Origin: an uncultured Lactobacillales bacterium
Lineage (GTDB): Bacteria > Pseudomonadota > Alphaproteobacteria > CAAHEQ01 > UBA3637
Direction of reading: 5' to 3'
DNA length: 64,000 bases
Assembly: GCA_964643615.1 (NCBI GenBank)
Contig: CAZXTR010000001.1
Coordinates: 1,923 to 65,922 of the forward strand
Position numbers and translations under genes: made by a program. The stretch's first letter is position 1. Every line of letters starts with the position of its first letter. Below, one piece after another: positions 8,814 through 42,701 of the stretch. The notes beneath the pieces were generated by a model that saw only the letters and a program-made list of their open reading frames with translations, searched no databases and was not told the DNA's origin.

Positions 8814-8902
8814 TTTTTATTTCCTCTATTTTTAAAATAACTCTTTTAAAAACACTTGTCAAAAAGAACGTGATTATGTATGATGAACGTTAGGAGATAT
8901 AA

Positions 8903-8979
8903 GTTCGTGTAGCTCAGCAGGATAGAGCGCAGGATTCCTAATCCTGAGGTCGTGGGTTCGACTCCCGCCACGAACACCA
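8903..8979 (+). tRNA. tRNA-Arg (anticodon CCT)
   Basis: Hand-folded cloverleaf. Acceptor GTTCGTG/CACGAAC is fully paired, D-stem GCTC/GAGC, anticodon stem CAGGA/TCCTG, loop TTCCTAA, T-arm GTGGG-TTCGACT-CCCGC, discriminator A, encoded CCA. Confidence 0.9.
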
Positions 8980-8991
8980 TAGGGGCAATAG

Positions 8992-10263
8992 ATGTTAGCA
9001 ACAAAACCAGAAGAAAATTTGATTAATGCCTTGGATCGCATAAGGGGCGTTTCTACTCCTTTTTTGGGGATTTACATTGCAATGTCAAAATTAACCCCAA
9101 ACAACCGAGGCTATCGTCAATTGGAAATTGTATCCCGATTATTTAAATCCTTGACAACCACAGAACAAAGTCGCTTATTTTTGCTTTCCAACAAAGATAT
9201 AGCCTTTATTACACCGAAATCTTCGCTAAACACTGTTGAAGAAATTTTATACCAAATTCGAACTTTATTCGCAGACGATCCTTTTTTGACAGAAAAAAAC
9301 AAAACCTCTTTTCAACACGTTTTTTTCTTGGACAATGAATTGGATGCGTTTAAACAATTGGTGTTTCAAAAAAATAAAGAGTCGGATAGAATACTGTCGC
9401 CCTCAAAGGAAATCAACCCCCTCTCTCCAGAAATATTAGAATCTGTTGTTAATCGTTTGGAAAAATTAGAGGCCATCCACTTTATTCGTCGGCAATCCGT
9501 TTTGTCTTTCCACCCCAAGTTTGGAAATCATTTTTTATTTCAAGAATTTTATACTTCTATCTCTCATTTGCAACAAAAGCTGTGCCCAGCGTATAGCTTG
9601 CTGGCTGAAAAGTCTTTATTTTTTCAATTAACGCAAACTTTGGATAAGCAGACGTTGCTCGCTTTAACTCATTTTAATTTAAACGAATATCCACCAGCCA
9701 TCAGTCTCAATTTAAACATATCGAGTTTGTATACTGCGGTTTTTCAAGAATTGTCCCGAGTATGGCCTACACCATTGATTATTGAATTACAACTTGCAGA
9801 TATTTTTCACAACTTAAAAACATATCAAGATGCCTATAAAAAAATGCACGAAATGGGGCATCAAATATTGATCGATGGATTGTCGCCTTTGGATTTAGAT
9901 TGTTTGGATTTTTCGATTTTACAACCCGATTATTTAAAAATCAATTGGGACCCAGAGTGGAAAAAAGAAGGTAAAGCCGAGTTGTTAAAACCTTATATTA
10001 ACAAAACTTATTTAACTATTGTGTTGACACATTGTAGTTCTGAAGATGCTTTAATGTGGGGGCAAAAAGCGGGCGTTTTTTCTTTCCAAGGGCATTACGT
10101 TGATGCTATCTTGGGAGCGATGATTAAAAATAGTTGCACTTTTGGCCAAGAATGTACACTTGCTTCATGCATGACGTGTCGACGTTCTTTGTCGCCACAA
10201 GTCCGCAGCCAATGTGTCCATTTGAAACATTTAGACGCCAACCCAAAAATGAAGGCGATTTAG
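8992..10263 (+). CDS. Hypothetical protein with a truncated GGDEF-like region and a degenerate EAL-like domain (paralogue 1)
   Basis: 423 aa. C-terminal half aligns by eye to the EAL fold, with QGHYV ending in place of QGY, but the catalytic motifs are replaced. N-terminal region resembles the distal half of a GGDEF domain (LFLLSNKDIAF in place of RxGGDEF). Paralogous to the next ORF. Confidence 0.5.
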   Translation: MLATKPEENLINALDRIRGVSTPFLGIYIAMSKLTPNNRGYRQLEIVSRLFKSLTTTEQSRLFLLSNKDIAFITPKSSLNTVEEILYQIRTLFADDPFLTEKNKTSFQHVFFLDNELDAFKQLVFQKNKESDRILSPSKEINPLSPEILESVVNRLEKLEAIHFIRRQSVLSFHPKFGNHFLFQEFYTSISHLQQKLCPAYSLLAEKSLFFQLTQTLDKQTLLALTHFNLNEYPPAISLNLNISSLYTAVFQELSRVWPTPLIIELQLADIFHNLKTYQDAYKKMHEMGHQILIDGLSPLDLDCLDFSILQPDYLKINWDPEWKKEGKAELLKPYINKTYLTIVLTHCSSEDALMWGQKAGVFSFQGHYVDAILGAMIKNSCTFGQECTLASCMTCRRSLSPQVRSQCVHLKHLDANPKMKAI

Positions 10264-11466
10264 ATGATTTCAACGCGCGAAGAATTTGTTTCTTTTTTAG
10301 AAAAAACACAAATGACATCAGCCAAATGGTGGATTTTACACATCCGTATGAGACAGTTGGAAAAAGTGTTAGAAAGCGGACGACTTTTGGACGTAGCACA
10401 AATGTTGCGTACTTTCGAAAAAGGTAAACTGGGTCGGCTATTTGAAATAGGGGGAGATATTTTTATTTATTTTCCTCAAACACGCGAAGACGATATGCTG
10501 GCTTTAATCGTCAAAATTAAGTTTTTGTCGGGACCTCGTCTTAAGGATAAATTCGCATTTTATACCATTTACCAACTACAAACGCAAATGGATGATTTGC
10601 TTGATTTATTAAAACCTCAAGAAGAGAAAAAAGAAGTGGAGGCCTCCACTTTGCAAACAACGCCTTCCTCCACTGTCACAACCCCGATTTTCCAAGAACC
10701 TCCATCATTTATGCCATTTCGCCCAATTTTGTTGGCTCAATTAGAAAAAACGTTACTTCAAGCAGACTTGTCCAACATTATACGCAACCAACCAGTTTGT
10801 GCAATTGTTGGGAAATCACCCCCTTTAGAATTGTTTAAAGAAGTTTATGTTGCTATCACCGATTTGATAAAAACTTTGTGCCCCAACGTTGATGTGCGTC
10901 GTTCTCCGCACTTATTCAATCGATTGATGGAAACTTTGGATAAGCGTGTTTTAGAAAATGTTGCCCACCACGATGGGGGAGCTTACCGTAAAAATTTCAG
11001 TTTAAATTTATCTGTCAAGAGTTTATCCACTGAAGATTTCCTTCGTTTTGACGAAAGTTTAACTGCTGCGAATAAAGAAACTATTTTGTTGGAAATTAAA
11101 CAAAGCGATATTTGTACAAACCTAGCTTCTTTTTTGTCTGTACGAGAAAAAATACAGCGAAAAGGATATCGTTTTTGTATGGACCTTGTCACCTTTGATT
11201 CTTTAGCGTTAGTACAAAGAGAAAAATTAGGCCTCGACATGATAAAAATCATTTGGTCTGCTGATATATTGAATAAACCATTATTGGATTTGTCCAAAAA
11301 AGCCATTCAAAAAACTAATCCGGAAAGGTTAATCCTTTGCCATGTTGACGACAAAAGAGCCATTGACTTCGCCCAAAATCTTGGCATTTCAATATTCCAA
11401 GGTTACTATATCCAAAAACTTTTGTACAAAACGCCTAAAGCCGTACGCATTAATCGACCTACATAA
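10264..11466 (+). CDS. Hypothetical protein with a degenerate GGDEF (GGDIF) region and a degenerate EAL-like domain (paralogue 2)
   Basis: 400 aa. [13 protein letters not shown] matches the RxGGDEF strand with E replaced by I. An EAL-like block is present: QPVCAIVG...[24 protein letters not shown] in place of EGVE, and QGYYI. The start ATG abuts the stop of the previous ORF (TAGATG). Confidence 0.55.
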
Positions 11467-14300: not shown

Positions 14301-15110
14301 CTATCCTTTAAGATATTCGGCGATTTTCAAAACATCTCCGCTGGCTTCAGCATTAGGATACGCAGACAAAATAGAACTTTGTGCACGAATACTATCCCGT
14401 ACGCGCGTATCACGTCTAATAATCCCCGCCAATTCAGGTGAAATTTTCAAAAATCCTTGGCACGCTTTTAACAGCGTGGAATAAGTCTTTTCTCCCTCAC
14501 GGTAAGTATTCGCCGAATTAATGACAATTTTTATTGTAATATCTGGATTTTCTTTAGATATGATTTTAATAAAAGCATAAGCATCTGTCAATGAAGTTGG
14601 TTCGTCAGTACATACGACTAACAAAGTTCCTGCATTCTCGGCAAAAAGACGCACTGCTTTTTCAACGCCTGCACCCAAATCAATAATTACCTTGTCGTAT
14701 CTAGACGCCAACAATTGTAAATCATCAAAAATTATTTGCAATCGAGATAAAGGTATGTTTGCCAAACTCCCCGAACCAGACCGCCCAGCAACAACATCAA
14801 ATCCATACTCTGGGCATGGGATAATCGCCTGAGTCAAAGGAACTCGCCCTGTAATTACAGACCCCAAATCAAAAGGCGTCACCAGTCCCAATTGAATGTC
14901 CACATTAGCCAAACCTAAATCTCCATCAAACAATAATGTTTTCGTTCCGTCCATTGCTAATGCGTGTGCCAGAGAAATAGAAAACCATGTTTTACCAACA
15001 CCTCCTTTGCCTGAAGCTATAGCAATCATATTACGTCCCTTATGGCGCTCTGACGCTTTGGGTGCCATTTTCAATTTTTGCGGTAAAGAAAGAATGCGTG
15101 AAATATTCAT
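14301..15110 (-). CDS. flhG: MinD/ParA-family ATPase of the FlhG (FleN/YlxH) type
   Basis: Deviant Walker A SGKGGVGKT; 269 aa; immediately downstream of flhF, as in flhF-flhG pairs. Confidence 0.7.
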   Translation of the reverse strand: MNISRILSLPQKLKMAPKASERHKGRNMIAIASGKGGVGKTWFSISLAHALAMDGTKTLLFDGDLGLANVDIQLGLVTPFDLGSVITGRVPLTQAIIPCPEYGFDVVAGRSGSGSLANIPLSRLQIIFDDLQLLASRYDKVIIDLGAGVEKAVRLFAENAGTLLVVCTDEPTSLTDAYAFIKIISKENPDITIKIVINSANTYREGEKTYSTLLKACQGFLKISPELAGIIRRDTRVRDSIRAQSSILSAYPNAEASGDVLKIAEYLKG

Positions 15111-15119
15111 TTTCCCCTC

Positions 15120-16064
15120 TTATTCTTTTGATAACATCATTTGAGCCAAAGATTGTGCGTCTATCGGACAAAGGCCTTGAGAAACATGTGGGCTTATTCC
15201 TGCATCACACAAACCTAACGAATGCACTTGAGCTGCATATAAAACACTGCCAAACCGTCTTGCTAAATCTAACCGCGTTGCTAATAACCGCTTACATCCT
15301 AATGGTAAAAAAGCTTCCACCATATCTATCGATTCAAAAGCGTCCATTCCTGCCGACATCACTAAAACAGGTTCTAACCCATTGATGTCTTTTTTCATGT
15401 TTTTTAAAAACTCAATATCAAATGACGAAAATGGATTAATTCCTGGGCTGTCAATCACTATCATGTCTACATTTTGACGCACATTTTCAATTGTTTCTTT
15501 TAAAAGTTCTGGCTTTTGAATTTTTATCAATTCAACCTCTAAAATTTGGGTAAAAGCAGACAATTGTTCTACTGCTCCTGCGCGTTTCATATCTGTTGTA
15601 ATAACAGCTACTTTTCTCCCAGAAATTTTAGCTCTGACAGCCATTTTTGCTACTGCAATAGTTTTACCAGAACCGCTAGATCCAACCAACATAAACGCCC
15701 TTTTCGCAGTGTGCGAAGGCAATGGATAAAATTTGAAAACTCGTTCTAATCCCATACTCAACAGCGCCGTTTCATCTTTTTTTTCACAACCATAGCAAGC
15801 CAATAAAATACGTTCTATTAAAATATCTGGGACACGATGAAATTCAAGATTTTCACGAATAGTGTGTAATGATTTTTCCTCTGCAGGACCAAACAAAGCT
15901 TCTTCAATTTCTTTTTCGCTGGTAGTTTCTTCAACCCCAACGGTTAAACGTACACCATCTTTCACATGTTGATTGGATATAATTAAAACATCACTACCGA
16001 AATCTTTTCGAATATTCTCCATAGCCGAGGCCACTGACTGTGCAACGTATGTTTTAATCTTCAT
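15120..16064 (-). CDS. flhF: Flagellar-type SRP-like GTPase FlhF
   Basis: 314 aa with GTPase motifs G1 GSSGSGKT, DTDMKRAG and an NG-domain layout like FtsY/Ffh. Paired with a MinD-like gene. Confidence 0.75.
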   Translation of the reverse strand: MKIKTYVAQSVASAMENIRKDFGSDVLIISNQHVKDGVRLTVGVEETTSEKEIEEALFGPAEEKSLHTIRENLEFHRVPDILIERILLACYGCEKKDETALLSMGLERVFKFYPLPSHTAKRAFMLVGSSGSGKTIAVAKMAVRAKISGRKVAVITTDMKRAGAVEQLSAFTQILEVELIKIQKPELLKETIENVRQNVDMIVIDSPGINPFSSFDIEFLKNMKKDINGLEPVLVMSAGMDAFESIDMVEAFLPLGCKRLLATRLDLARRFGSVLYAAQVHSLGLCDAGISPHVSQGLCPIDAQSLAQMMLSKE

Positions 16065-16070
16065 AACATG

Positions 16071-16877
16071 CTATCCTTTTTGTCTTTTAAAATAAACAAT
16101 CCTTTCCGAAGCTGGCAAAAGGCTGTTCATTTCGGCTTCTGTGCGTCTGGGGTTTTCCTTTTTATCAATAGAAACTAACCCCACAAGGCATAATTGATTC
16201 AATTTTAATTTTTCTTGTGCGTCTTTTTCCAATCTTGAAGCTAAAGGGAAAAAGACAACATATGCCAATACTGCCCCATAAAATGTAGTCAACAAAGCAA
16301 CCGCCATTGAAGGTCCGACGGTTGTAGGATCTGACAAAGAAGACAACATTTGAACCAATCCTATCAATGTCCCAATTAATCCCATCGCAGGAGCAATTTC
16401 TCCGGCTTTAGACATCACCAACACCGATTGCATTTGAGTTTCATACAAAGCATCCATGCGGTGGCGCATTATTTCTTGACATTCTTTACCTGTCATGCCA
16501 TCAATTAAGCAAGATACTCCTTCCTTTAAAAAAGGAAAGCTTTTTAGTGATTCTATATAGTTTTGACGCAGTTGCAAAATCCCACTTGTATAGGCAATTT
16601 CCGAGCCACGAACCACTTGTAATGCAACGCTACTTGGATGGCGAGATTGATGTACAAAAAGCCTCAACACAGATTGCATACTTTGACCAATTTCTCGCAA
16701 AGAGAAACTAATTAAACAGGCAAAAAACGTACCACCCAAAACAATCCAAAGAGCGGGTTTGTTGATAAAGGAGCCAAAATGGCCACTCATCATAATCGCG
16801 CATCCAATCAAAAAGAAAACGCCAAATAATCCAAGCAATACAGAAATATCAACAAGCGAAAAATTTGAATGTTTCAT
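16071..16877 (-). CDS. motA: MotA/PomA-family stator protein
   Basis: 268 aa with four TM helices. The TM3-4 motif AVALLTTFYGAVLAYVVFFPLASRLE matches the MotA/PomA plug and channel region. No motB is adjacent. Confidence 0.7.
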   Translation of the reverse strand: MKHSNFSLVDISVLLGLFGVFFLIGCAIMMSGHFGSFINKPALWIVLGGTFFACLISFSLREIGQSMQSVLRLFVHQSRHPSSVALQVVRGSEIAYTSGILQLRQNYIESLKSFPFLKEGVSCLIDGMTGKECQEIMRHRMDALYETQMQSVLVMSKAGEIAPAMGLIGTLIGLVQMLSSLSDPTTVGPSMAVALLTTFYGAVLAYVVFFPLASRLEKDAQEKLKLNQLCLVGLVSIDKKENPRRTEAEMNSLLPASERIVYFKRQKG

Positions 16878-16893: not shown

Positions 16894-17217
16894 TTAAGGT
16901 TTTACAATTTCTGTCATTGTCACACACAATTTTTCCCCTCGGTTTACCAATTCACCTTTGGCTATTAAATGATTATTGACATAAATGTCGATTTGTTCTC
17001 CCGCTTGTTTATCCAACTCGACAACAGAATCTGGACCCATTTTCAACAATTCATGCATTGGCATAACTGCTTTTCCCAAAACTGCCGTCACACAAACGGG
17101 AATATTGAAAAGCGCATTTGACGAAGTTATTTCTTCTTGAAACGTATTTGTTATTTTCCCCGTTTGGAGCGTTTTTTCTGCCAATTTTAAAAAATCTGCT
17201 TTTTGTTTTTCATTCAT
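16894..17217 (-). CDS. fliN: Flagellar motor switch protein FliN (SpoA domain)
   Basis: 107 aa; C-terminal SpoA signature VVELDKQAGEQIDIYVNNHLIAKGELV. Confidence 0.8.
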   Translation of the reverse strand: MNEKQKADFLKLAEKTLQTGKITNTFQEEITSSNALFNIPVCVTAVLGKAVMPMHELLKMGPDSVVELDKQAGEQIDIYVNNHLIAKGELVNRGEKLCVTMTEIVKP

Positions 17218-17226
17218 AACCTTTTC

Positions 17227-18243
17227 CTACTCTATCATTTCTTCGGTATCTTCACCTTGAGATAAAATAACATCCCCTTTTAATGCCAAATCTTTAGCAA
17301 TTGCTACAACATCCGACTGAGCTTGGTCCACATCACGCAACCGAACGGCTCCCAAGGCTTCCATATCTTCGGTCAAAATCAATCTGGCTTGCGGAGATAA
17401 ATTGCCCATAAAAGCTTCAACCACACTATCGGAAACTCCTTTTAAGGCTATTGCCATTTTTTGACGTTCTACAGCTCTTAAAACATTTTGAATGGAAGAG
17501 GAATCCAACAAAGCTATATCTTCAAATGTAAACATCATAGAACGCACTTGTTCGGCCACATCACGGTTACGTTCAAACAAAGCCGTCATCAACCGATTTT
17601 CCGTTTTCCTATCTAAATAATTAAAAACGTCGGCAATACGTTCGTGACCTTCCTTACCATCCGATTGTGCTAAAGTGTTCATGAAATCATCATGCAAAGT
17701 TTGTTCAACCTCTTGTAACACATCTTTTTTTACATGCTCTAAACGAAGAAGTCGCATAATAATATCCATGACAAAATCTTCGGGCAAAAATGAAATAACT
17801 TTTGCTACATAATCTGGATTTAATCGCGATAAAATAACGGCGCCTGTTTGCGGATATTCGTTTTTCAAATAGCCCGCTAAAACATCTGCATTAACATTTT
17901 CCAATTTTTCCCACACCGTCCCTCCTGCAGGGCCTTTTATTTCATCTAAAATATTTTTTTGGCGTAAGCCTGGCAACACTTTTTGCAATAACTTTTCCGT
18001 TCTTTCAAATCCTCCACTTAATGACCGTGGTTTATCAAAACTATCCAAAAAATCTTCTAACACTTTTTGCGTCAAAGCCGAATCAACATTACCCAAATTT
18101 GCCATAGTAATTGAAACTTCACGAACTTCATTGTCGTCAAATTGTTCGAATATTTTTTTGACGAAACTTTCTCCTATGGCCAACAAAAAAATAGCAATTT
18201 TTTGACGTCCTGTCAATGTTTCATAAGTCAGAGATTCTGGCAT
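17227..18243 (-). CDS. fliG: Flagellar motor switch protein FliG
   Basis: FliG N, middle and C-terminal domain pattern (MPESLTYETLTGRQKIAIFLLAIGE...). The start is taken at ATG 18241-18243 with RBS AGGAGG 9 nt upstream, 1 nt after the fliF-like stop. The ORF-track start at 18318 would overlap the upstream gene. Confidence 0.85.
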   Translation of the reverse strand: MPESLTYETLTGRQKIAIFLLAIGESFVKKIFEQFDDNEVREVSITMANLGNVDSALTQKVLEDFLDSFDKPRSLSGGFERTEKLLQKVLPGLRQKNILDEIKGPAGGTVWEKLENVNADVLAGYLKNEYPQTGAVILSRLNPDYVAKVISFLPEDFVMDIIMRLLRLEHVKKDVLQEVEQTLHDDFMNTLAQSDGKEGHERIADVFNYLDRKTENRLMTALFERNRDVAEQVRSMMFTFEDIALLDSSSIQNVLRAVERQKMAIALKGVSDSVVEAFMGNLSPQARLILTEDMEALGAVRLRDVDQAQSDVVAIAKDLALKGDVILSQGEDTEEMIE

Positions 18244-18244
18244 G

Positions 18245-19126
18245 TTAGAATCCCTCCTTTGGATCTTGATAAAACCATGAACACAAAACGTTAACCGTTT
18301 CAGACATGTCATTTTCAACTCGCTGATGGACTTTTTTCATTAACGGGGTTTTAAGTTCAACTCTTGTTGGAGATTCTTTTAATAAATCACTCACCACTTC
18401 GGCATTCGCAAAAGCAGGCAAAGACGATTGACTTTCTAAAGGCGTTTTCGACAAAAACCTTTTCCAAACAATCCAAATAAAGCCAATAACAACAGCAAAA
18501 ATTAAAAGGGCAAACTCGGCAAAACGAACCCATGTCGGCGACAATAATGTTTTAGGGACAGAAACATTTTTGAATGGCGTTGTTAAAAATTCAATTTTAT
18601 CGCCTCTTTTCACATCAAAACCAATTGCTGTTTTGATTAATGAATACAAGTTTTCTTTGTCTATCACAGCCCCCGACGAATCAATTAAAACGGCCACTGA
18701 TAATTTTTTAACTACGCCGCCGTTTTGGATTTGTTGAATGTTTTTTTTGGAAAAAATATATGTAATTTCTTCGGCAGTGTTGTTCGTTTTAGACGTTTGC
18801 ACAATCGGCATATCCGAATCTAAAACTTCACGGTTGATAATATTTTGGTTAAAGTCGATATCTGCTTGCACAGAAACCGTAACATTTCCCACTCCGACAA
18901 CTTTTTCTAACATTTGTTGGACAGAACCTGCCAACCTTGTTTCATAAGATTTGCGGACATTTTCAAATGCGAGCACAGAGGCGGACAAGTCACCGTTTTT
19001 ATTGTTTGTAAAGGATTCTTGCGCCTGTGCGGACGAAAAACAAAGGCCAACAAACATTAAAAATGCAATGCTTTTTAACCCTTGTACGCTTATTTTTAAA
19101 CATTTCTTCAAGCACAACCAGAGCAC
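18245..19126 (-). CDS. fliF: FliF-like MS-ring protein, short form. An N-terminal signal/TM is followed by the C-terminal half of the FliF periplasmic domain, a second TM and the cytoplasmic FliG-binding tail
   Basis: 293 aa with FliF-like blocks: VGVGNVTVSVQADIDF, KKLSVAVLID, AIGFDVKRGDKIEF, then TM2 FAEFALLIFAVVIGFIWIVW and a roughly 70-aa tail. About 250 aa of N-terminal periplasmic sequence expected in FliF is absent. Only 120 bp separate this ORF from divergent rluD. Confidence 0.6.
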   Translation of the reverse strand: MLWLCLKKCLKISVQGLKSIAFLMFVGLCFSSAQAQESFTNNKNGDLSASVLAFENVRKSYETRLAGSVQQMLEKVVGVGNVTVSVQADIDFNQNIINREVLDSDMPIVQTSKTNNTAEEITYIFSKKNIQQIQNGGVVKKLSVAVLIDSSGAVIDKENLYSLIKTAIGFDVKRGDKIEFLTTPFKNVSVPKTLLSPTWVRFAEFALLIFAVVIGFIWIVWKRFLSKTPLESQSSLPAFANAEVVSDLLKESPTRVELKTPLMKKVHQRVENDMSETVNVLCSWFYQDPKEGF

Positions 19127-19246
19127 AGACTTTACCTTTCCTTTAAAGACGTTTGTTTATTATGAATAGGCAATGGTGAATTTTTGGTTAAAAAATCAAA
19201 AAATAACCCATTGCAAAAACGATAAAAAAATGGTACAAAGCAAACT

Positions 19247-20179
19247 ATGGAAAAACAAAAAATAATATGCCCTCCTGTTGATGCAACCCAACAAGGTATG
19301 CGATTGGATAAATTTTTGGCAATGTCTTGTGATTTATCTAGAACACGCTTGTCGACTCTAATCAATCAGGGTTTTATCTCCCCGCCACAAGCAAGCGATT
19401 CAAAAGTTTGTGTCGGACAAATTTTCACAATCAACGTCCCCGAATCTGCCCCAGCCATTCCAACAGCCGAAAAAATAAAATTAGACATTTTATACGAAGA
19501 TGACGATTTGATAGTTATTAATAAACAAGCAGGAATGGTTGTCCATCCTGGAGCTGGAAATTTTTCTGGCACATTAGTGAATGCTTTGTTGGCGCACTGT
19601 AGGGATTCTTTATCGGGGATAGGTGGGGTTAAACGACCTGGAATCGTTCACCGCATCGATAAAGAAACCAGCGGTGTTTTAGTCATCGCAAAAAATGATA
19701 AATCGCATCAACACTTAAGTGACCAATTTGCACTTCACAGCATTCAAAGAACATATATAGCTATTGTTTATGGCATCCCTTTACCTAAAGGAACCATCAC
19801 AGGGAACATTGGACGTAACGCGACTAACCGTCAAAAAATGGACATAGTTTCGGGACGAGGCAAACCAGCTATCACGCATTATCATTTGATTAAACCGTTG
19901 TTTAACGGAAAAGCTTCATTAATTGAATGTCAATTGGAAACTGGGAGAACTCATCAAATTCGAGTTCACATGACGTCTATTCAACATCCTTTGGTGGGGG
20001 ATAAAATTTACGGCAATAAGCCGAAGGGAACACCTCCTATCTTAGGGCTTTTCCCACGTCAAGCATTGCACGCGCAATCTTTGGGCTTTATCCACCCAAG
20101 ATTTAATAGATTTGTATCATTTATTGCCCCTCTACCGAAAGATATAGACCTTTTATTACAAGCTTCAGAAGTTTTATAA
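19247..20179 (+). CDS. rluD: 23S rRNA pseudouridine synthase, RluD/RluA family, with S4 domain
   Basis: N-terminal S4 domain (MRLDKFLA...) and catalytic [12 protein letters not shown] motif. Confidence 0.85.
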
Positions 20180-23033: not shown

Positions 23034-23655
23034 TATTGAAACATCTTTAGGAATACATGGTTTTATCGCAGGAGTTGACGAAGCGGGACGAGGACCTTGG
23101 GCTGGTCCTGTTGTAGCAGGCGCTGTTGTTTTCCCAAATTTAAAAATTGCATCTAAATTGGCTTGTCAAATTAATGATTCAAAAAAATTAAACCGTCAAA
23201 AAAGGGAAAGTTTGTTTGAAGCATTATTTCAAAGTGGCGCTTTAATCGGGGTAGGACAATCGTCGGTGAAAGAAATTGATTCTCTCAACATTTTACAAGC
23301 TACCTTTTTAGCAATGCATCGTGCCGTAGAACAAATAGAACTCCAAAACCCTGTTGCTTTTACTTTAATTGACGGCAACCGATTACCAAAACACAATTGG
23401 GAATGGCCATCCAAGCCCGTTATCAAAGGCGACTCTATTTGTCTTTCCATTTCTGCAGGATCTATTATTGCAAAAGTCTCTCGGGACAGAATTATGGCTC
23501 AACTAGCTATACAATACCCTTATTATGCATGGGAGAAAAATGCGGGGTATGGCGTCCCCACACATATCGAAGGGCTTATTAAATACGGGGTTTCGCCATA
23601 TCATCGCCGTTCTTATGCCCCTATTGCAAAATTTCTTTCAAAGGAATCAATTTAA
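23020..23655 (+). CDS. rnhB: Ribonuclease HII
   Basis: [15 protein letters not shown] active-site motif; 211 aa; 14-nt overlap with uvrA. Confidence 0.9.
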
Positions 23656-24821
23656 TCACGCTCATGTACTTGATTATTCCTACCATCTAAAAAAGGATTG
23701 CCGGGCCAAACAACTTTTTTCTTTTGAGACAACTGGCACCCTCTTAAAGCCCTAGAAGAAGTTAGCACTTCTATAACCTCATTAAGGCTGTCACGCGGGG
23801 AAACAAGATTGGCAATAACATTATGGCTACAAATAAAATCATTTCCTTGACGTCCATATTCTTTATTAAGCTTCCCCTTTATTTTGTCTCGGCACGCAGA
23901 GGCATAATCCATCAAAGTTAATCCGCTTTGATTTGTGTAATTAATATTGTTTAAACAGGGTAAAAACTTTTTAAAGGTTGATAAATCAGAATTTTTAATT
24001 GATTTTTTTAAACAATTAAAAAAGTTATTATTGACTTTTAAACACAACGGTTCTTGCATTGTTTGTTTAAAATCTTTTCCCCCTTGAAAAGCTTGACGAA
24101 TTTGGTTTAACTTTGCTATTTCAAATCCCAACTTATATGCATCTTTAGAACGTGTTGTTTCCCTTTTTCTTTGCGCCTCTGCTTCCTTCAATGTTTGGGT
24201 TTTTGTTGTTAAAGTTCTTTGGGCTTTTTTTTCAAAAATTCTTTGAGCTTTTGCTCTTTGTTCCCTCATTATTTTTGAAATAATATAGACAAATCTTTTT
24301 ATTGTATTTGGGGAAAGAGTTTTGCTGTACATGGCAACTTTTTTTGTGTCGAATTCTCGAACATTCAACAATTCCAATTTCTTTTCTAAATCTTCGACCT
24401 CCGTCGCAGTTAGAGGAATAATAGTCTCTTCTTTTCGTTGCGGAATAGGACTGTCATTAGACAAATGTGGATACCGATAACATTTTCCATATCCATTAAT
24501 ATATTTTGAAATACCAATATCGTCCAACACTTTTTGAATCCTTAAAAAGGCTCCTTTTTTCTTGCCCAATTCAAATGCCAGCTTCGAATTTCTTTCATAA
24601 ATAGCTTCCTTCAATTCTTTGTCATATTGAATTGAAAAGATCGCCATGTGATCCAACAACGTTTTGCAAGTATAAAGTTTATTCTTTATTTGTGGTGCAT
24701 ATGCCAAAAAAGCATTTGATTCAAAAAGGGAATAATTCCCTGCCTTAACGGCTTTCAATAAATTTTGAAAGGAAAAAACACATTGCGATTTTAATGGTAC
24801 AACAACCTGTTTATCTAACAT
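23652..24821 (-). CDS. Hypothetical protein with a coiled-coil/basic central region and an ankyrin-like C-terminal segment
   Basis: Start taken at the internal Met (RBS AGAGG) to avoid overlap. C-terminal NNINYTNQSGLTLMDYASA resembles an ankyrin repeat core; the central region is K/E/R/Q-rich. No family recognised. Confidence 0.45.
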   Translation of the reverse strand: MLDKQVVVPLKSQCVFSFQNLLKAVKAGNYSLFESNAFLAYAPQIKNKLYTCKTLLDHMAIFSIQYDKELKEAIYERNSKLAFELGKKKGAFLRIQKVLDDIGISKYINGYGKCYRYPHLSNDSPIPQRKEETIIPLTATEVEDLEKKLELLNVREFDTKKVAMYSKTLSPNTIKRFVYIISKIMREQRAKAQRIFEKKAQRTLTTKTQTLKEAEAQRKRETTRSKDAYKLGFEIAKLNQIRQAFQGGKDFKQTMQEPLCLKVNNNFFNCLKKSIKNSDLSTFKKFLPCLNNINYTNQSGLTLMDYASACRDKIKGKLNKEYGRQGNDFICSHNVIANLVSPRDSLNEVIEVLTSSRALRGCQLSQKKKVVWPGNPFLDGRNNQVHERD

Positions 24822-24853
24822 TTTTACCTCTATTTTCAATAAGTTACAAAATT

Positions 24854-25246
24854 TTACACAATTACGCGCCCATGCCCACAATCCTGCCGCATGGGATATT
24901 TCTTGTGACAAACTGTCGATATTTTTGGTGGCAGTTGAGGGCCTTGTTTCGCTCCGCTAGCTTCCAACATTTTTCTTATTATCGTTAATTGTCCGATAGT
25001 AAAACCTATCCTATAAAGAGCGTTTAAATCATTTTCTTTTTGTAACATATCGGCGAGTTTATTTTTCAAATTCTGATTTCTAAAATCAACATAATCCAAT
25101 AACGTCCAGCCGTTGGCATCTCGATGATTAATATCTTTTACAGATGTTAATGCATATTCAAATGGATTTGAATTTCCACGTATGATATTTGCCTTTAACA
25201 TTTGAAATATTCTATCTTGCGTACCACTTTTATTTAATTTTTTCAT
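24854..25246 (-). CDS. Small hypothetical protein with an ankyrin-like motif
   Basis: Start at ATG 25244-25246 with RBS AAGGAA. DINHRDANGWTLLDYVDF fits the ankyrin D-x-x-G-x-T-x-L core. Divergent from ccrM. Confidence 0.45.
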   Translation of the reverse strand: MKKLNKSGTQDRIFQMLKANIIRGNSNPFEYALTSVKDINHRDANGWTLLDYVDFRNQNLKNKLADMLQKENDLNALYRIGFTIGQLTIIRKMLEASGAKQGPQLPPKISTVCHKKYPMRQDCGHGRVIV

Positions 25247-25539: not shown

Positions 25540-26685
<1,146 letters not shown>

Positions 26686-27544
26686 AATAGTTAATTTTTA
26701 TTTTTTTGTACAAATCTTTTCGATATACGAGACAAAGAAATACTAGATATAAGTAGATTTAAGTTCTTTTAAGAATAACGTCTTAATTGGATTCCCCCCC
26801 CTTGTCGAAAGATTCTTTTTCTCGAATCGAGACATAAATTGAATCGAACAAATCAACAATATCTGGCTTTAATGTAAAATATTTTTTATGAAAGGACTCT
26901 AAATGATTGAGACACGTAAAATCTTAACTAAAAATTAAACCACAGATTAAAACAAGCCGTTTCTTGTTATAATCTTGATGCGATAACGTATGCTTTGATT
27001 TGAGGGCAAAAATTATCCTCCGTATCAAGATAGAGAAAAAACACCATTTTCGATATTACATTTCAGAGGTATCAAAAAGCAGCGGCGCTCCTGATAAAAG
27101 AATAGCTATAGAAATTTTAATTTGGCCTTTGGATGCGCAGAGGAATGCCTTATGACAAAAAGAAGTCTTTAGGGGAAAAGGATATTTTTTTGATTTGTTT
27201 AAACAAGCTATTTTTAAATAAAACCCAAAGATATTAGAAACCTTATATAAAAAAGATTTCATATACAAAAACTCATTAACAAAGAGAGGAAATCTTTACT
27301 AGATATCTCCATTCAACATCAACAATTCTTGGAACGTGCAAATAATGAATGGGAAAGGTTAGCTTTAGATTGCAGCTTTTTAAGAGAACAGTAATTCCAA
27401 ACATAAAAATAAACACACCCCAACGAAAAAATTATCTATCGCTAAAACAATTGATGATAGAATGCGCATATATTGAATTAGGTTGACTTTTTGCCTTTTT
27501 TATGTTATCATGCCTTCCTTGATAAACGAAGAGGACATTCTATA

Positions 27545-27853
27545 ATGTATAATGATAAAGTAACTCAAGATTTTGTCGCGCGTCTCTCTCTTTCGCCCAG
27601 GGAAACAAGCAACGAAGAAATTAAGATTGTCTTACAAGCTGTCCTCGACCTAAACAACCATCAAACCTTTGATACAATAGGAAGAACCTCCTTAATGCTT
27701 TTGGCAGGGGGAAAGCCTTCTGCTAAAAGCACCAAAACCAATCTTACTATTAGAAGGAAAACTTATGATTCTCTCTTCCCTTTAATCTATCCGAAAAAGG
27801 TTGTAACGAAAGAATCCTCCTATCAATCAAACAATAAAATTCTAACAAGATAA
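27545..27853 (+). CDS. Small ankyrin-like protein, family member A
   Basis: Start MYNDKVTQDF, paralogous to the next ORF (KYNDEVTSAF). Ankyrin-like core GRTSLMLLAGG. RBS GAGGA. Confidence 0.45.
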   Translation: MYNDKVTQDFVARLSLSPRETSNEEIKIVLQAVLDLNNHQTFDTIGRTSLMLLAGGKPSAKSTKTNLTIRRKTYDSLFPLIYPKKVVTKESSYQSNNKILTR

Positions 27854-27865
27854 ATAAGGATTTTT

Positions 27866-28348
27866 ATGACGCACTGTAATAAAAGAAAATACAATGATGA
27901 AGTAACGTCTGCGTTCATCGCACTTTGTTCCAATCCGAATGCAAAAATCGATGGAAAAATCATTAAAAATGCCCTAAGAAATGGGTTCAATCCAAACAGT
28001 CAAGAATTTGATTGTCAAAAAAGAACACCTTTAATGCTTTTAATAGAAAAGCATGCCGAAGTTGTCGAGGTCTTTATAAAGGTTTGTAAAATCAAGGGAC
28101 AGACTTTAGACACAACGAAATGTGATACCTTTGGATTTGACACAAAGGATTATGCAAAGGTCACGCGTTCCGTCTTAACAGATCAAGAAATAGGAAATAA
28201 AGTTTACGATACAATCTCAACTTTAATAAGTTCAGAATCCCAAATTGACCAAAAAATGCGACAACATTCATCAATTCCAGTGCAGAATATTGTATATAAA
28301 CCACGCAACGGACTTAACCAACAACACAAGAGATCGTTGCAAAGATAG
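27866..28348 (+). CDS. Small ankyrin-like protein, family member B
   Basis: 160 aa; NGFNPNSQEFDCQKRTPLMLLIEKHAEVVEVFIK fits an ankyrin repeat. RBS TAAGGA 6 nt upstream. Confidence 0.5.
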   Translation: MTHCNKRKYNDEVTSAFIALCSNPNAKIDGKIIKNALRNGFNPNSQEFDCQKRTPLMLLIEKHAEVVEVFIKVCKIKGQTLDTTKCDTFGFDTKDYAKVTRSVLTDQEIGNKVYDTISTLISSESQIDQKMRQHSSIPVQNIVYKPRNGLNQQHKRSLQR

Positions 28349-28429
28349 ATCAAACTATTAACTCAATTTACCCACACGCTCCAATGGTGCGCGATTGCGG
28401 TGTTTTTATTTTTAAAAAGGACAAAACGT

Positions 28430-28780
28430 ATGATCCCGGATCAAAGAACAAAAATACAAAAAACAACAGAGGAAATAACTACCCTTTATAATTTATCACA
28501 AGAAGATAGGCAAAAATTACAACGAATCAGAAAATCAGATGGGCAATTGCAAGTATTTTTAACAAATCTCATTATATGGAACGCTCTTGGGCACATCCAA
28601 TACTTTTTAAGCAAATATCCAGAAGCAACTGATGTCGCACCTAAAAACCGCAGAACATGGGCTCAAGAAGCAAAAGAATATAGCAGAAACCCAGAAATCG
28701 TAGAGTTTTTAAACTCTCACATTCAACAACGAGAACAATTAAAAAGAAAGACTCGAACGTTCGAAAAACAAAAAGAATAG
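28430..28780 (+). CDS. Small hypothetical protein, same array, weak ankyrin-like segment
   Basis: Start at internal ATG with RBS AAGGA. NALGHIQYFLSKYPEATD resembles an ankyrin helix-turn. Weak. Confidence 0.35.
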   Translation: MIPDQRTKIQKTTEEITTLYNLSQEDRQKLQRIRKSDGQLQVFLTNLIIWNALGHIQYFLSKYPEATDVAPKNRRTWAQEAKEYSRNPEIVEFLNSHIQQREQLKRKTRTFEKQKE

Positions 28781-29020
28781 AAAACTATTCGTAACGCCTC
28801 TGCGATATCTTCTAAAGAAAAAATCAACCACCTTCATAAAAAGCACAACGGCTGATCAAACGAACAACCATCCATCGATGCCTGTCGAAATTTTGTTCCA
28901 TAGTATGCATAATAAAACATAAATTTATTATAAAATCCTTTGTTGTAAATTTTGTTTGATTTTTTCTATTTTTTAAAGTACAGTGTGAATAGGATTTCGT
29001 TCTATTTAAAGGAGATACCT

Positions 29021-29347
29021 ATGCAACAAAAAACTTTAAATGAAAAGAAAAATAAACTAAACCACTTGAAATGCCAAGTAGATTTATGGAGAGCGGTTCA
29101 GTTGAACAACCCTTATTTGTTAAAAATATCTTTAGACGGCAGGAAGCCCTATATTGATATTAATGAAAAAATGGGAAATGAAACCCTTTTGGATAGAGCC
29201 AAATCTTACAAAAAAAATCGAGTTATCCCTATTTTAGTTCGTTATGGCGCAATAACGAGTGACGAGATTCGTCGTATTCAACGACATAATAAAAATATTG
29301 ACCTTCAAAAAGGCCAAACGGAAATAAGGTATAAAACATTAAATTAA
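29021..29347 (+). CDS. Small ankyrin-like protein, family member D
   Basis: Start MQQKTLNE with strong RBS AAAGGAG. GNETLLDRAKSYKKNRVIPILVRYGA fits an ankyrin repeat. Confidence 0.45.
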   Translation: MQQKTLNEKKNKLNHLKCQVDLWRAVQLNNPYLLKISLDGRKPYIDINEKMGNETLLDRAKSYKKNRVIPILVRYGAITSDEIRRIQRHNKNIDLQKGQTEIRYKTLN

Positions 29348-29528
29348 TGAAATGGTTATGAAAAGTTCAAGGAGCTCAACAAAAAAAATCGGTGCCAAAG
29401 AGATTGTACATTTCCTTCGAAAAAAAGAATCAAGAACAACTTTTAAATTAATGCCGAAAGCGCATCTAACAAATCGCGGGCCCCATTATCGGCCTACCAG
29501 CTCTCTCAAATATAGTTAAGGACAATTG

Positions 29529-29927
29529 ATGGAACAACAAACTGATGATTTTAATGAAAAACAAACACGAAAAATGGCTAGATGGCTTTCTTTCAGAGGA
29601 AAGATTCCTCCCAATAAAATTTCCGAATGTATTCATTTAAAAGGAAACCCAAATGGACACATTAAAGATTTAAGCTTTTTAACAGTTGCTATTGTTTGGC
29701 ATCCTGAAGTTTTCTATGAATTTATAAATGGTGGAGCCAACATCAACGAAGAAAATATTTTCGGGCGCACTCCTTTAGATAATGCAAACCAATGTTTTCT
29801 TACGTCGTTGAACACACCTGCTCGTGATACCTATAGAAAAATTATCGATGTTTTAAAGAAAAACGGCGCAAAAAGCAAAGTAGCAGAAAGACAGGTTTTG
29901 GCGATTCTTTCGGGAAAAGGAAGATGA
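29529..29927 (+). CDS. Small ankyrin-like protein, family member E (about 1.5 repeats)
   Basis: LTVAIVWHPEVFYEFINGGANINEENIFGRTPLDNA matches the ankyrin consensus closely. RBS TAAGGA. Its stop lies 3 nt before the rlmE start. Confidence 0.55.
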   Translation: MEQQTDDFNEKQTRKMARWLSFRGKIPPNKISECIHLKGNPNGHIKDLSFLTVAIVWHPEVFYEFINGGANINEENIFGRTPLDNANQCFLTSLNTPARDTYRKIIDVLKKNGAKSKVAERQVLAILSGKGR

Positions 29928-41915: not shown

Positions 41916-42701
41916 TTAAAAGCTCCCTTTCCCTGTCATTTTTACCTTTAAAATATCAAACACTTGTTCAGGCGAGAAAAATTGTGGTGCCTTTTTAGTT
42001 AACCCCTCTCGTGTTAAGCGTATTGATTTTTGATATTCTTTTATCATAAACTCATAATATTTATTTTGATTTTCATGATCTTGAACAACCTCTACTGCAA
42101 GGCGTGTTATTTCATCTTTCCCTAACACGTCTAAAAAGAAAGGAGCATAACCTTCTTTAATAAGAAGTAAATTCATCATTAAATTCGCAGTGCGCTTATT
42201 CATATCAGGAAAAGGTTGTGTCAATACAATCCCCTTATAAGTAGAAAAAACTCGTTTTAAAAAGGGTTGTTTTTCGTCAAATTGATTATTAACAATTAGC
42301 CTCATTTGATGCGGGATTTGGCTCGCTTCAACAGGTAAATAGTCCCTTATTTTTTCGCCAGACTTTCTATATTCACCACTTACCGAAATACTTCTTTGTG
42401 AAACCAAAAGTCTTTCTACAATCGTCCCTTTCATCAAAAGTGCATTAATTTCTCGAATGGTACATTCGGCCACAAAATCGTTTGAAGCAATATTATCACG
42501 AATGTAGGCAACGCCATTTTTTAAATTGCGACTAGTAATTGTAATTTCATGTCGCAATTCTTCGCTTAAATCATTATTTTTTATATTCTCTTGACACGAT
42601 TGTTGAAAAAAATCATCCAACAAAACAAAAACAGCCGCTTTTCCTTGTTCGGTCAACGAACTTTTAAATAATTCGCATTCTTTCTGTAACTTAGAAAACA
42701 T
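41916..42701 (-). CDS. Fic/Doc-fold protein with a non-canonical Fic motif ([12 protein letters not shown] in place of HPFx[DE]GNGRxxR)
   Basis: 261 aa. The block [30 protein letters not shown] aligns without gaps to the Fic core [27 protein letters not shown]. The flanking helices are conserved, but the catalytic His and both Gly residues are replaced. Its stop lies 1 nt from the ettA start and its start 3 nt from the dut stop. Confidence 0.6.

Follow-up and report, generated by a model that had tools for sequence, protein, structure and literature searches.

A stretch of 64,000 nucleotides from assembly GCA_964643615.1 (contig CAZXTR010000001.1, positions 1,923 to 65,922), referred to below as the window, was analyzed with emphasis on a 293-amino acid open reading frame (ORF) located directly upstream of fliG at 18245..19126. 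The ORF lies on the minus strand, as do the features of its operon described below unless stated otherwise, begins with GTG, and ends with TAA. Based on the ORF list, Pfam, and a hidden Markov model (HMM) of full-length FliF, it was assigned as FliF', a FliF protein cut to its outer half that consists of one N-terminal hydrophobic segment, ring-building motif 3 (RBM3), a second transmembrane segment (TM2), and a FliG-docking tail. The gene is neither an artifact nor a pseudogene. It is also no one-off, since it belongs to a conserved protein family with its own operon and with natural FliF-FliG fusions, all of which the initial annotation of the window had overlooked.

Domain content and fold

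Pfam analysis of FliF' identified PF08345 (YscJ_FliF_C) alone (E=1.3e-19; 71.5 bits, cut-off 23.8), and there was no match in the protein to PF01514 (YscJ_FliF), which represents RBM1 and RBM2, at E<=0.1. Residues 28-287 were aligned by BLASTP to residues 213-508 of a 509-amino acid FliF (E=5e-19). An HMM of 544 positions was built from 81 full-length FliF proteins obtained in the library search described below, and FliF' matched it solely at positions 218-289 and 326-543, leaving positions 1-217 unmatched. The FliF equivalog model TIGR00206 gave 29.7 bits against a cut-off of 129.75 and covered profile positions 229-284 alone. For reference, the published boundaries in Salmonella FliF are 60-124 for RBM1, 125-215 for RBM2, 228-438 for RBM3, 271-381 for the collar, and 514-560 for FliF_C (PMC11673145). 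The initial annotation had proposed a genuine FliF homologue without RBM1 and RBM2, and Pfam, BLASTP, and the 544-position HMM all agreed with this. It had also described a hydrophobic N-terminus, a periplasmic region, a second membrane helix, and a tail of about 70 residues, each of which was recovered as follows.

The N-terminal hydrophobic segment, SIAFLMFVGLCFSSAQA (residues 19-35; 19022..19072), was located by the method of Kyte and Doolittle and is either TM1 or a cleavable signal peptide. Its score in a 19-residue window was 1.78, measured on P0001, which is 97% identical to the window protein; most other members scanned scored 2.0-2.8, as for a strong TM1. Because the score was 1.78 and an AQA-Q site, read directly from the sequence, follows the segment, the N-terminal segment of FliF' may be a cleaved signal peptide rather than TM1. 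The periplasmic RBM3, comprising the S-ring domain and a shortened beta-collar hairpin, spans residues 46-185 (18572..18991) according to AlphaFold2, Foldseek, and a phmmer search of the PDB. TM2 (residues 199-222; 18461..18532) had a Kyte-Doolittle score of 2.9, corresponds to a helix at 197-225 in the AlphaFold2 model, and aligns to TM2 of Salmonella FliF. The cytoplasmic tail of 71 residues (223-293; 18248..18460) was aligned to the C-terminus of full-length FliF by both BLASTP and the HMM. Its C-terminal helix (residues ~261-288, sequence ...ETVNVLCSWFYQD) is predicted to bind FliG_N, and the tail ends in the FliF C-terminal motif, which reads VLCSWFYQ in the window and LRxWL in relatives. 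Across the family W284 was invariant and L281 and R282 were nearly so. In Salmonella, FliF_C at 514-560 binds FliG_N and RBM3 is the domain that forms the S-ring and collar (PMC11673145); the tail of FliF' would likewise be expected to bind FliG_N.

The AlphaFold2 model was built with an 11-sequence family alignment and had a mean predicted local distance difference test (pLDDT) score of 68.6. Its secondary structure consisted of a helix at 46-77, a beta-hairpin at 82-115/118-148, a helix at 157-168, a strand at 177-182, the TM helix, and helices in the tail. Means of pLDDT over 10 residues were 87-95 for the first helix and the first strand, fell to about 70 halfway along the hairpin, and stood at 80-92 over the end of the second strand, the second helix, and the third strand. 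The top Foldseek matches in the PDB were the RBM3/collar regions of Salmonella and Vibrio FliF (E~1e-12), followed by SpoIIIAG (E=1.7e-5), with PrgK/EscJ reaching just 1e-3 to 1e-2. The phmmer search of the PDB also aligned the RBM3 region to FliF chains and indicated a collar about 69 residues shorter than that of Salmonella. No lipobox was found in FliF' by direct reading; the sole cysteine of the hydrophobic region occurs in FVGLC with Leu at -1, and the c-region reads SSAQA. Based on the Foldseek ranking, the modeled domain is the FliF-specific, SpoIIIAG-like RBM3 with its beta-collar, and the SctJ-like modules are precisely those that are missing. The suggestion in the initial annotation that the protein is closer to YscJ/PrgK than to FliF was not upheld by the domain, lipobox, and fold comparisons.

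Gene boundaries and assembly

A Shine-Dalgarno-like sequence, AAGGAAAGG, is located at 19135-19143, 8 nt before the GTG start of fliF'. The TAA stop codon (18245-18247) is separated by one base from the ATG of fliG (18243), which is preceded at 9 nt by AAGGAGG, in keeping with the tight coupling to fliG that had been noted initially. On the other side, 120 bp (19127-19246) containing zero Ns separate fliF' from the divergent rluD (19247..20179, plus strand), and this interval offers no coding space for RBM1 and RBM2, as had also been stated. The rluD gene, taken from the ORF list, forms a conserved left boundary of the operon; PseudoU_synth_2 adjoins fliF' in L004, L005, L006, L037, L010-L012, L014, and L015.

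The Logan assembly of SRR22315505 (locus L001) contains the same 293-amino acid gene, at 97% amino acid identity to the window protein, and shares the fliF' upstream region and the start of rluD collinearly with the window. An assembly gap or a mis-called start was rejected on the grounds that there are no Ns, that the Logan assembly is collinear through rluD, and that at least 12 diverged loci agree. A gap at 19127-19246 hiding the N-terminal half, which had been raised as a potential refutation, fails in view of the independent assembly and of more than 12 diverged loci with the same short gene by rluD. An alternative ATG start (M24, yielding 270 amino acids as in gene call P0002) was also rejected, because the hydrophobic segment found in all orthologues would be lost. 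A plasmid search with the window sequence gave no match.

Family of short FliF proteins and fusions to FliG

An exhaustive HMMER search of a library of 1.84 billion representatives produced 1189 matches at E<=1e-3, and the best of these were short proteins aligned end to end. They included P0004 (281 amino acids, 45% identical to FliF') and P0005, P0007-P0010, and P0012-P0015 (254-318 amino acids). A total of 151 retrieved proteins, essentially the listed matches of the library search, were classified against the full-length FliF profile. Stand-alone short FliF proteins of 254-338 amino acids with two hydrophobic segments accounted for at least 14 representatives (50% identity clusters), and a profile search added 13 further clusters of 262-295 amino acids. 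PF08345 was present in all 11 aligned family members and PF01514, at E<=0.001, in none of the 11. Other 'short' matches of 340-420 amino acids were set aside as N-terminally truncated fragments of full-length FliF proteins in which the end of RBM2 is still present.

A fusion of the TM1-RBM3-TM2 module with FliG was found in 8 representatives among the 151 classified proteins. In seven of these (452-507 amino acids) the module is followed by FliG_M and FliG_C, and the FliF tail and FliG_N are missing, whereas the eighth, P0091, contains a whole FliG; P0006, P0018, P0020, and P0030 are fusions from sister lineages. The fusion lineages keep solely FliF'-FliG, FliN, FlhF, and FlhG, in housekeeping surroundings (L005, L007, L039, L040, L041-43), and motA is not in their operon. 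In one fusion lineage, a DnaJ-domain protein of 382-383 amino acids is encoded directly after flhG and overlaps it (L040, 8067-9215; L041, 13421-14572), and the gene is kept in this position at these two distinct loci. The comparison with orthologues that the initial annotation had suggested thus revealed the same short form in stand-alone relatives of 254-338 amino acids, in a conserved six-gene operon, and in natural fusions.

The public gene call for the family member in L037 (10001-10957; P0160/P0009, 318 amino acids) begins before the promoter motif described below, which it translates as ...VNEKFT..., and the true start probably lies some 29 codons further downstream, at MQTIRNG... No family member carries a name in any source searched, and the family is for this reason likely to be overlooked or misnamed by annotation pipelines.

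Organization and conservation of the operon

The gene order rluD / fliF' fliG fliN motA flhF flhG, mostly followed by secA, was found at fourteen loci. Those named for this order are the window, L001, L004 (GCA_965350215.1), L006 (GCA_964369135.1), L010-L015, L037, and L038. L010-L015 are six GTDB-representative metagenome-assembled genomes (MAGs) titled 'uncultured Alphaproteobacteria bacterium', one of them from a Hadza gut data set. The related loci were read at +/-10 kb each, which amounts to ~20 kb per relative; the L001 contig stops within motA, and L013 begins at fliF' and leaves rluD uncovered.

The fliG gene (17227..18243) encodes 338 amino acids with N, M, and C domains (Pfam FliG_N/M/C, E 1e-26 to 1e-34; PDB alignments) and scored 230.8 bits with TIGR00207 against a cut-off of 226.7. 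FliG is canonical, with an intact FliG_N, EYPQT as the EHPQR-type FliM-binding motif, MFTFED, and the torque helix GAVRLRDVDQAQ. In the short-FliF clade, Q/K/A takes the place of the second acidic residue of this helix, which L019 and L007 have. The fliN gene (16894..17217; 107 amino acids) was assigned from PF01052 (E=1.4e-21) and TIGR02480 (85.1 bits, cut-off 84.05). A motA/pomA-like stator gene (16071..16877; 268 amino acids) matched PF01618 (E=9.6e-23) and PomA structures (E=3e-42). The PomA loop charges R88/K89/E96/E97/E99 correspond to Y96/T97/R104/Q105/Y107 in the window MotA, and these five rotor-facing positions are uncharged or reversed throughout the short-FliF clade, with L019 keeping R88 and E97. 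The MotA channel motifs and both prolines are retained, and judging from these residues the MotA-FliG interface looks remodeled, not decayed. The operon continues with flhF (15120..16064; 314 amino acids), an SRP-type GTPase supported by PF00448 (E=1.6e-24) and by TIGR03499 (E=1e-38, under the model cut-off), and ends with flhG (14301..15110; 269 amino acids), a MinD-type ATPase with ParA/MinD-type Pfam matches. Highly conserved, clade-specific N-terminal peptides occur in FliN (MNEKQKAEFLKLAEK) and FlhG (MNISRILSLPQKL) and are both absent in L019; the FliN peptide has a vague likeness to the EIDAL-type motif of FliM/FliY that binds FlhG or CheY.

Amino acid identity between the window and L004, L006, and L010-L015 was 32-44% for FliF', 53-64% for FliG, 49-69% for FliN, 47-63% for MotA, 52-78% for FlhF, 75-88% for FlhG, and 72-81% for SecA, and in L037 it was 27% for FliF' and 65% for SecA. 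The best-conserved operon gene is therefore flhG and the fastest evolving is fliF' (27-45% identity overall). Ratios of nonsynonymous to synonymous substitution rates (dN/dS), calculated by the Nei-Gojobori method, were 0.03-0.37 for fliF', including 0.088 and 0.31 in the two pairs with unsaturated dS, and 0.01-0.23 for the other operon genes. The operon is under purifying selection that is more relaxed on fliF', and by these ratios fliF' itself is indicated to be a functional gene under purifying selection. Between L011 (CALXXX01) and L013 (CASDQF01), secA was near-identical (dS 0.067) and the adjoining genes from fliF' to flhG had a dS of 0.4-1.5, which points to recombination or to a contig that is mosaic or chimeric.

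A conserved 16-nt motif, TTAACCAAAAATTCAC, is located upstream of fliF' at 19176..19191 and is followed by a -10-like CATAAT at 19159-19164. It occurs once in the window, where 0.12 occurrences would be expected by chance, and has the form TTAA-N7-TTCA, differing from the CtrA box TTAA-N7-TTAA at one position. Each of the 11 short-form loci whose sequence extends upstream of fliF' has the exact TTAACNAAAAATTCAC, followed by a CATAAT-like hexamer, shortly before that gene. Because the class II flagellar promoters of Caulobacter are CtrA-controlled, this candidate box may place the fliF' operon under CtrA control by analogy. A promoter and terminator consensus scan of the operon detected no excess of sites over shuffled sequence.

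Genes missing from the operon

A full-flagellum relative is L019, a Rhodospirillaceae MAG with fliK, flgE ... fliF fliG fliH fliN motA, a sigma54 activator, flhA, and flhG. Its FliF is full-length (PF01514 and PF08345), and this FliF, FliH, the activator, and FlhA are encoded between the same flanking genes. Compared with L019, the operon of the short-form clade is without the RBM1-2 half of fliF, fliH, the activator (flbD), and flhA in all short-form lineages. The lost elements are concerned with housing, supplying, or regulating the type III export gate, and those kept are the rotor, stator, and positioning genes. From this comparison, the operon seems to have descended by deletions from a Rhodospirillales-type fliF-fliG-fliH-fliN-motA-flbD-flhA-flhG arrangement.

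The missing elements were also sought outside the operon. With the full-length FliF profile, neither the 64-kb window nor the sequence around 13 related loci (+/-10 kb each) yielded an RBM1/2-like ORF. When all ORFs of six complete flagellar clusters were used as queries, the only matches in the window were the six operon genes, and the only matches beyond operon genes in the 13 related loci were flaF and a response regulator in L007. No export-apparatus gene was present in the 64-kb window, a statement of the initial annotation that the six-cluster queries and the FliF profile confirmed. The neighborhood likewise contained no injectisome genes (sctD, sctC, sctRSTUV), the neighbors of fliF' being fliG, fliN, motA, flhF, and flhG. 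In L007 (GCA_023266845.1, high in guanine plus cytosine), at 8886-9278, flaF, which encodes a flagellin-synthesis regulator, and a DUF1153 gene immediately precede the FliF'-FliG fusion, and a CtrA-like response regulator and a ChpT-like gene are located downstream of it.

Proposed function and alternative explanations

The explanation judged on balance probable is that FliF' forms part of a polar rotor scaffold, positioned by FlhF and FlhG, that has an S-ring only and no export gate, and that is kept for an export-independent role such as spatial or cell-cycle control, possibly rotating in the clade of the window. FlhF would recruit FliG and FliF' to a pole, where RBM3 would drive the self-assembly of FliF' into a membrane ring that has an S-ring only and carries one FliG for each subunit; the FliF'-FliG fusion would hard-wire the FliG tether in some lineages. 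FliN would complete a small C-ring, FlhG would cycle on the ring, and the complex resulting from the S-ring and small C-ring would thus be an export-independent polar ring. Such a ring could serve as a platform for FlhG/FlhF-dependent spatial control of the division site or polarity, as in Campylobacter jejuni, and in the clade of the window it may also be a rotor driven by the remodeled MotA stator. Parts of this scheme have precedents. FliG, once bound by the N-terminal domain of FlhF, engages FliF at the pole, and FlhG acts as a modulator of FliG-FliM/N (PMC11236974). In C. jejuni, FlhF, FlhG, FliF, FliM, and FliN restrain polar division, and single type III secretion system (T3SS) components and the rod protein FliE are dispensable for this (PMC3228812).

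A broader version, to which slightly less than an even chance is given, is that the whole clade consists of non-flagellated, probably host-associated alphaproteobacteria. These would have discarded the export apparatus, rod, hook, and filament and repurposed the RBM3-only ring, FliG/FliN, a recharged MotA, and FlhF/FlhG for the cell cycle, division, polarity, or another periplasmic task, possibly with rotation; the sister lineages would have been simplified to FliF'-FliG plus FliN, FlhF, and FlhG.

Several points weigh against the export-independent scaffold. FliG retains its EYPQT FliM-binding motif and most torque-helix charges and motA is under strong purifying selection, both of which fit a working motor equally well. 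The flaF gene of L007 hints that at least this organism may still be flagellated. In addition, the absence of flagellar genes refers to 64 kb of the window genome and ~20 kb per relative rather than to whole genomes.

The same observations enter into an explanation regarded as unlikely, in which FliF is split. Here the RBM1-RBM2 half would be encoded elsewhere as an SctJ-like gene beside export-gate genes, both parts would build a normal MS ring together, and the cells would be motile. Intact and strongly constrained FliG, FliN, and MotA, the conserved FliM-binding motif of FliG, the flaF gene adjoining the module in L007, and the small visible part of each genome are all in its favor. Against this, no PF01514-like ORF occurs in the window or within +/-10 kb of the 13 loci, and fliH, flbD, and flhA, present in the ancestral-type operon, are gone from the operon in every short-form lineage. 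The operons of the fusion lineages are without motA as well, the rotor-facing charges of MotA are lost, and no such split was reported in the literature found.

It is more improbable still that FliF' is the sole FliF of a complete flagellum, with an RBM3-only MS ring enclosing the export gate and rod and no RBM1/2 anywhere. This shares the support listed for a split FliF (constrained FliG/FliN/MotA, the FliM-binding motif, flaF in L007, and the small visible part of the genome), and the beta-collar, which lies around the proximal rod in Salmonella (PMC11673145), is kept in shortened form. The collar is, however, ~69 residues shorter than that of Salmonella, the operon no longer contains fliH and flhA, and the MotA/FliG interface is remodeled.

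A decaying remnant, in which a functionless 5'-truncated fliF pseudogene persists after flagellar loss, is very improbable and already contradicted. The rapid evolution of fliF' within the operon (27-45% identity, dN/dS up to 0.37) and an equivalog score far under the cut-off (29.7 versus 129.75 bits) would be consistent with decay, but architecture and length are held in relatives down to 27% identity, the frame is intact everywhere, and dN/dS is low (0.03-0.09 in the better-resolved pairs), as under purifying selection. Both TM segments, the RBM3 core, the FliG-binding motif, and the promoter motif are also conserved, and FliF'-FliG fusions occur in several lineages. An SctJ/YscJ/PrgK-type secretion inner-ring protein, with which FliF' has a superficial likeness in topology (signal-like at the N-terminus, a lone ring domain, and a TM segment at the C-terminus), has a negligible probability and is refuted by the domain assignment: PF01514 and a lipobox are missing, the folds of PrgK/EscJ match far less well than FliF RBM3, and the FliG-binding tail and the fliG/fliN/motA/flhF/flhG neighbors are flagellar.

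Implications

Among structural proteins, FliF comes first in every flagellum, and its RBM1-RBM2 half is considered necessary for holding the export gate. An RBM3-only FliF maintained by natural selection would represent a minimal MS ring made by evolution: a self-sufficient module, separable from the rest, that consists of RBM3, the FliG tail, and two TM segments. FliF' would provide a simple system in which S-ring assembly and the 34:34 match between FliF and FliG can be studied free of the RBM2 symmetry mismatch. Should the remaining flagellar parts be absent, rotor/positioning and export modules are separable in nature, which bears on the evolution of the flagellum. The export-independent polar ring, if true, would amount to a non-motility function for MS- and C-ring proteins together with FlhF/FlhG, a role that to our knowledge has so far been described in C. 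jejuni alone.

Other features of the window

Tandem paralogous ORFs of 423 and 400 amino acids are located at 8992-10263 and 10264-11466 (plus strand), and their EAL domains are weak and probably degenerate (E=8e-7 and 1e-11, respectively). Situated beside secA and the flagellar-type operon, they may be related to cyclic di-GMP. A Fic/DOC-family protein (E=1.3e-8) is encoded at 41916-42701 (minus strand) between a dUTPase-like ORF and an ABC-F (EttA-like) ORF, its gene neighbors, both named by eye from their translations. A CcrM-like ORF at 25546-26685, named in the same way, and the titles of the related MAGs identify the organism as an alphaproteobacterium. The ORF at 23652-24911 (minus strand), part of a run that also includes 27491-29927 (plus strand), had no Pfam match; an ankyrin-like reading of the ORFs at 23.6-30 kb was accordingly dropped as unsupported, and no claim of host association was drawn from it.

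Comparison with known systems

In the literature searched, no description was found of an RBM3-only FliF family or of the six-gene operon, and the chlamydial case discussed below was the only one that turned up. Canonical FliF (PF01514 and PF08345, TIGR00206) shares with FliF' the RBM3/beta-collar, TM2, the FliG-binding tail, and the place directly before fliG, with fliN next. It differs in its length of ~510-570 amino acids, compared with 293 for FliF', and in the possession of RBM1 and RBM2 (~215 residues). In canonical FliF, RBM1 and RBM2 build the inner M-ring together with the cog structures that encircle the export gate, and RBM3 builds the 33/34-mer S-ring and beta-collar.

The FliF of Chlamydiaceae, the nearest precedent, is also naturally shortened, occurs in host-associated bacteria with few flagellar genes, and is linked to FliG, as in P0006, P0018, P0020, and P0030. 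It is ~330 amino acids long, is fused to a FliG_M-like region, and keeps RBM2 and one unassigned RBM-like domain without the SpoIIIAG-like RBM3 (PMC4768692, Bergeron 2016). As judged from this published description, it is the opposite truncation to FliF'. Unlike the FliF' operon, the chlamydial fusion sits with fliI/flhA-type genes and an injectisome, and the NCBIfam model for the chlamydial FliF-FliG (NF004606) had no match to FliF'.

In SpoIIIAG, as predicted for FliF', an N-terminal membrane segment precedes a lone RBM3-type domain, which has a beta insertion and builds a large ring; TIGR02830 (SpoIIIAG) gave 27.7 bits with FliF' (E=1.6e-6), under its cut-off of 147.7. It has no second TM segment or FliG-binding tail and belongs to the firmicute spoIIIA operon, and its sequence similarity to FliF' is much weaker than that of FliF. 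The likeness of SctJ/YscJ/PrgK/EscJ to FliF' is one of bare topology, with an export signal at the N-terminus, a ring domain in the periplasm, and a TM segment at the C-terminus. SctJ-type lipoproteins consist of RBM1 and RBM2 (PF01514) with a lipobox; these modules are the ones missing in FliF', and the fold match is marginal.

Engineered FliF-FliG fusions exist in Salmonella and Vibrio (PMC4768692, PMC10941966, PMC11481574). In concept, laboratory deletion-fusions resemble seven of the eight natural fusions, which drop the FliF tail and FliG_N; the natural ones are without RBM1/2 as well. A functional parallel to the proposed polar ring is the control of division in C. jejuni, which involves the same set of FlhF, FlhG, FliF, and FliN and is independent of single T3SS components and the rod. 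C. jejuni differs in having complete flagella and a full-length FliF and in requiring FliM.

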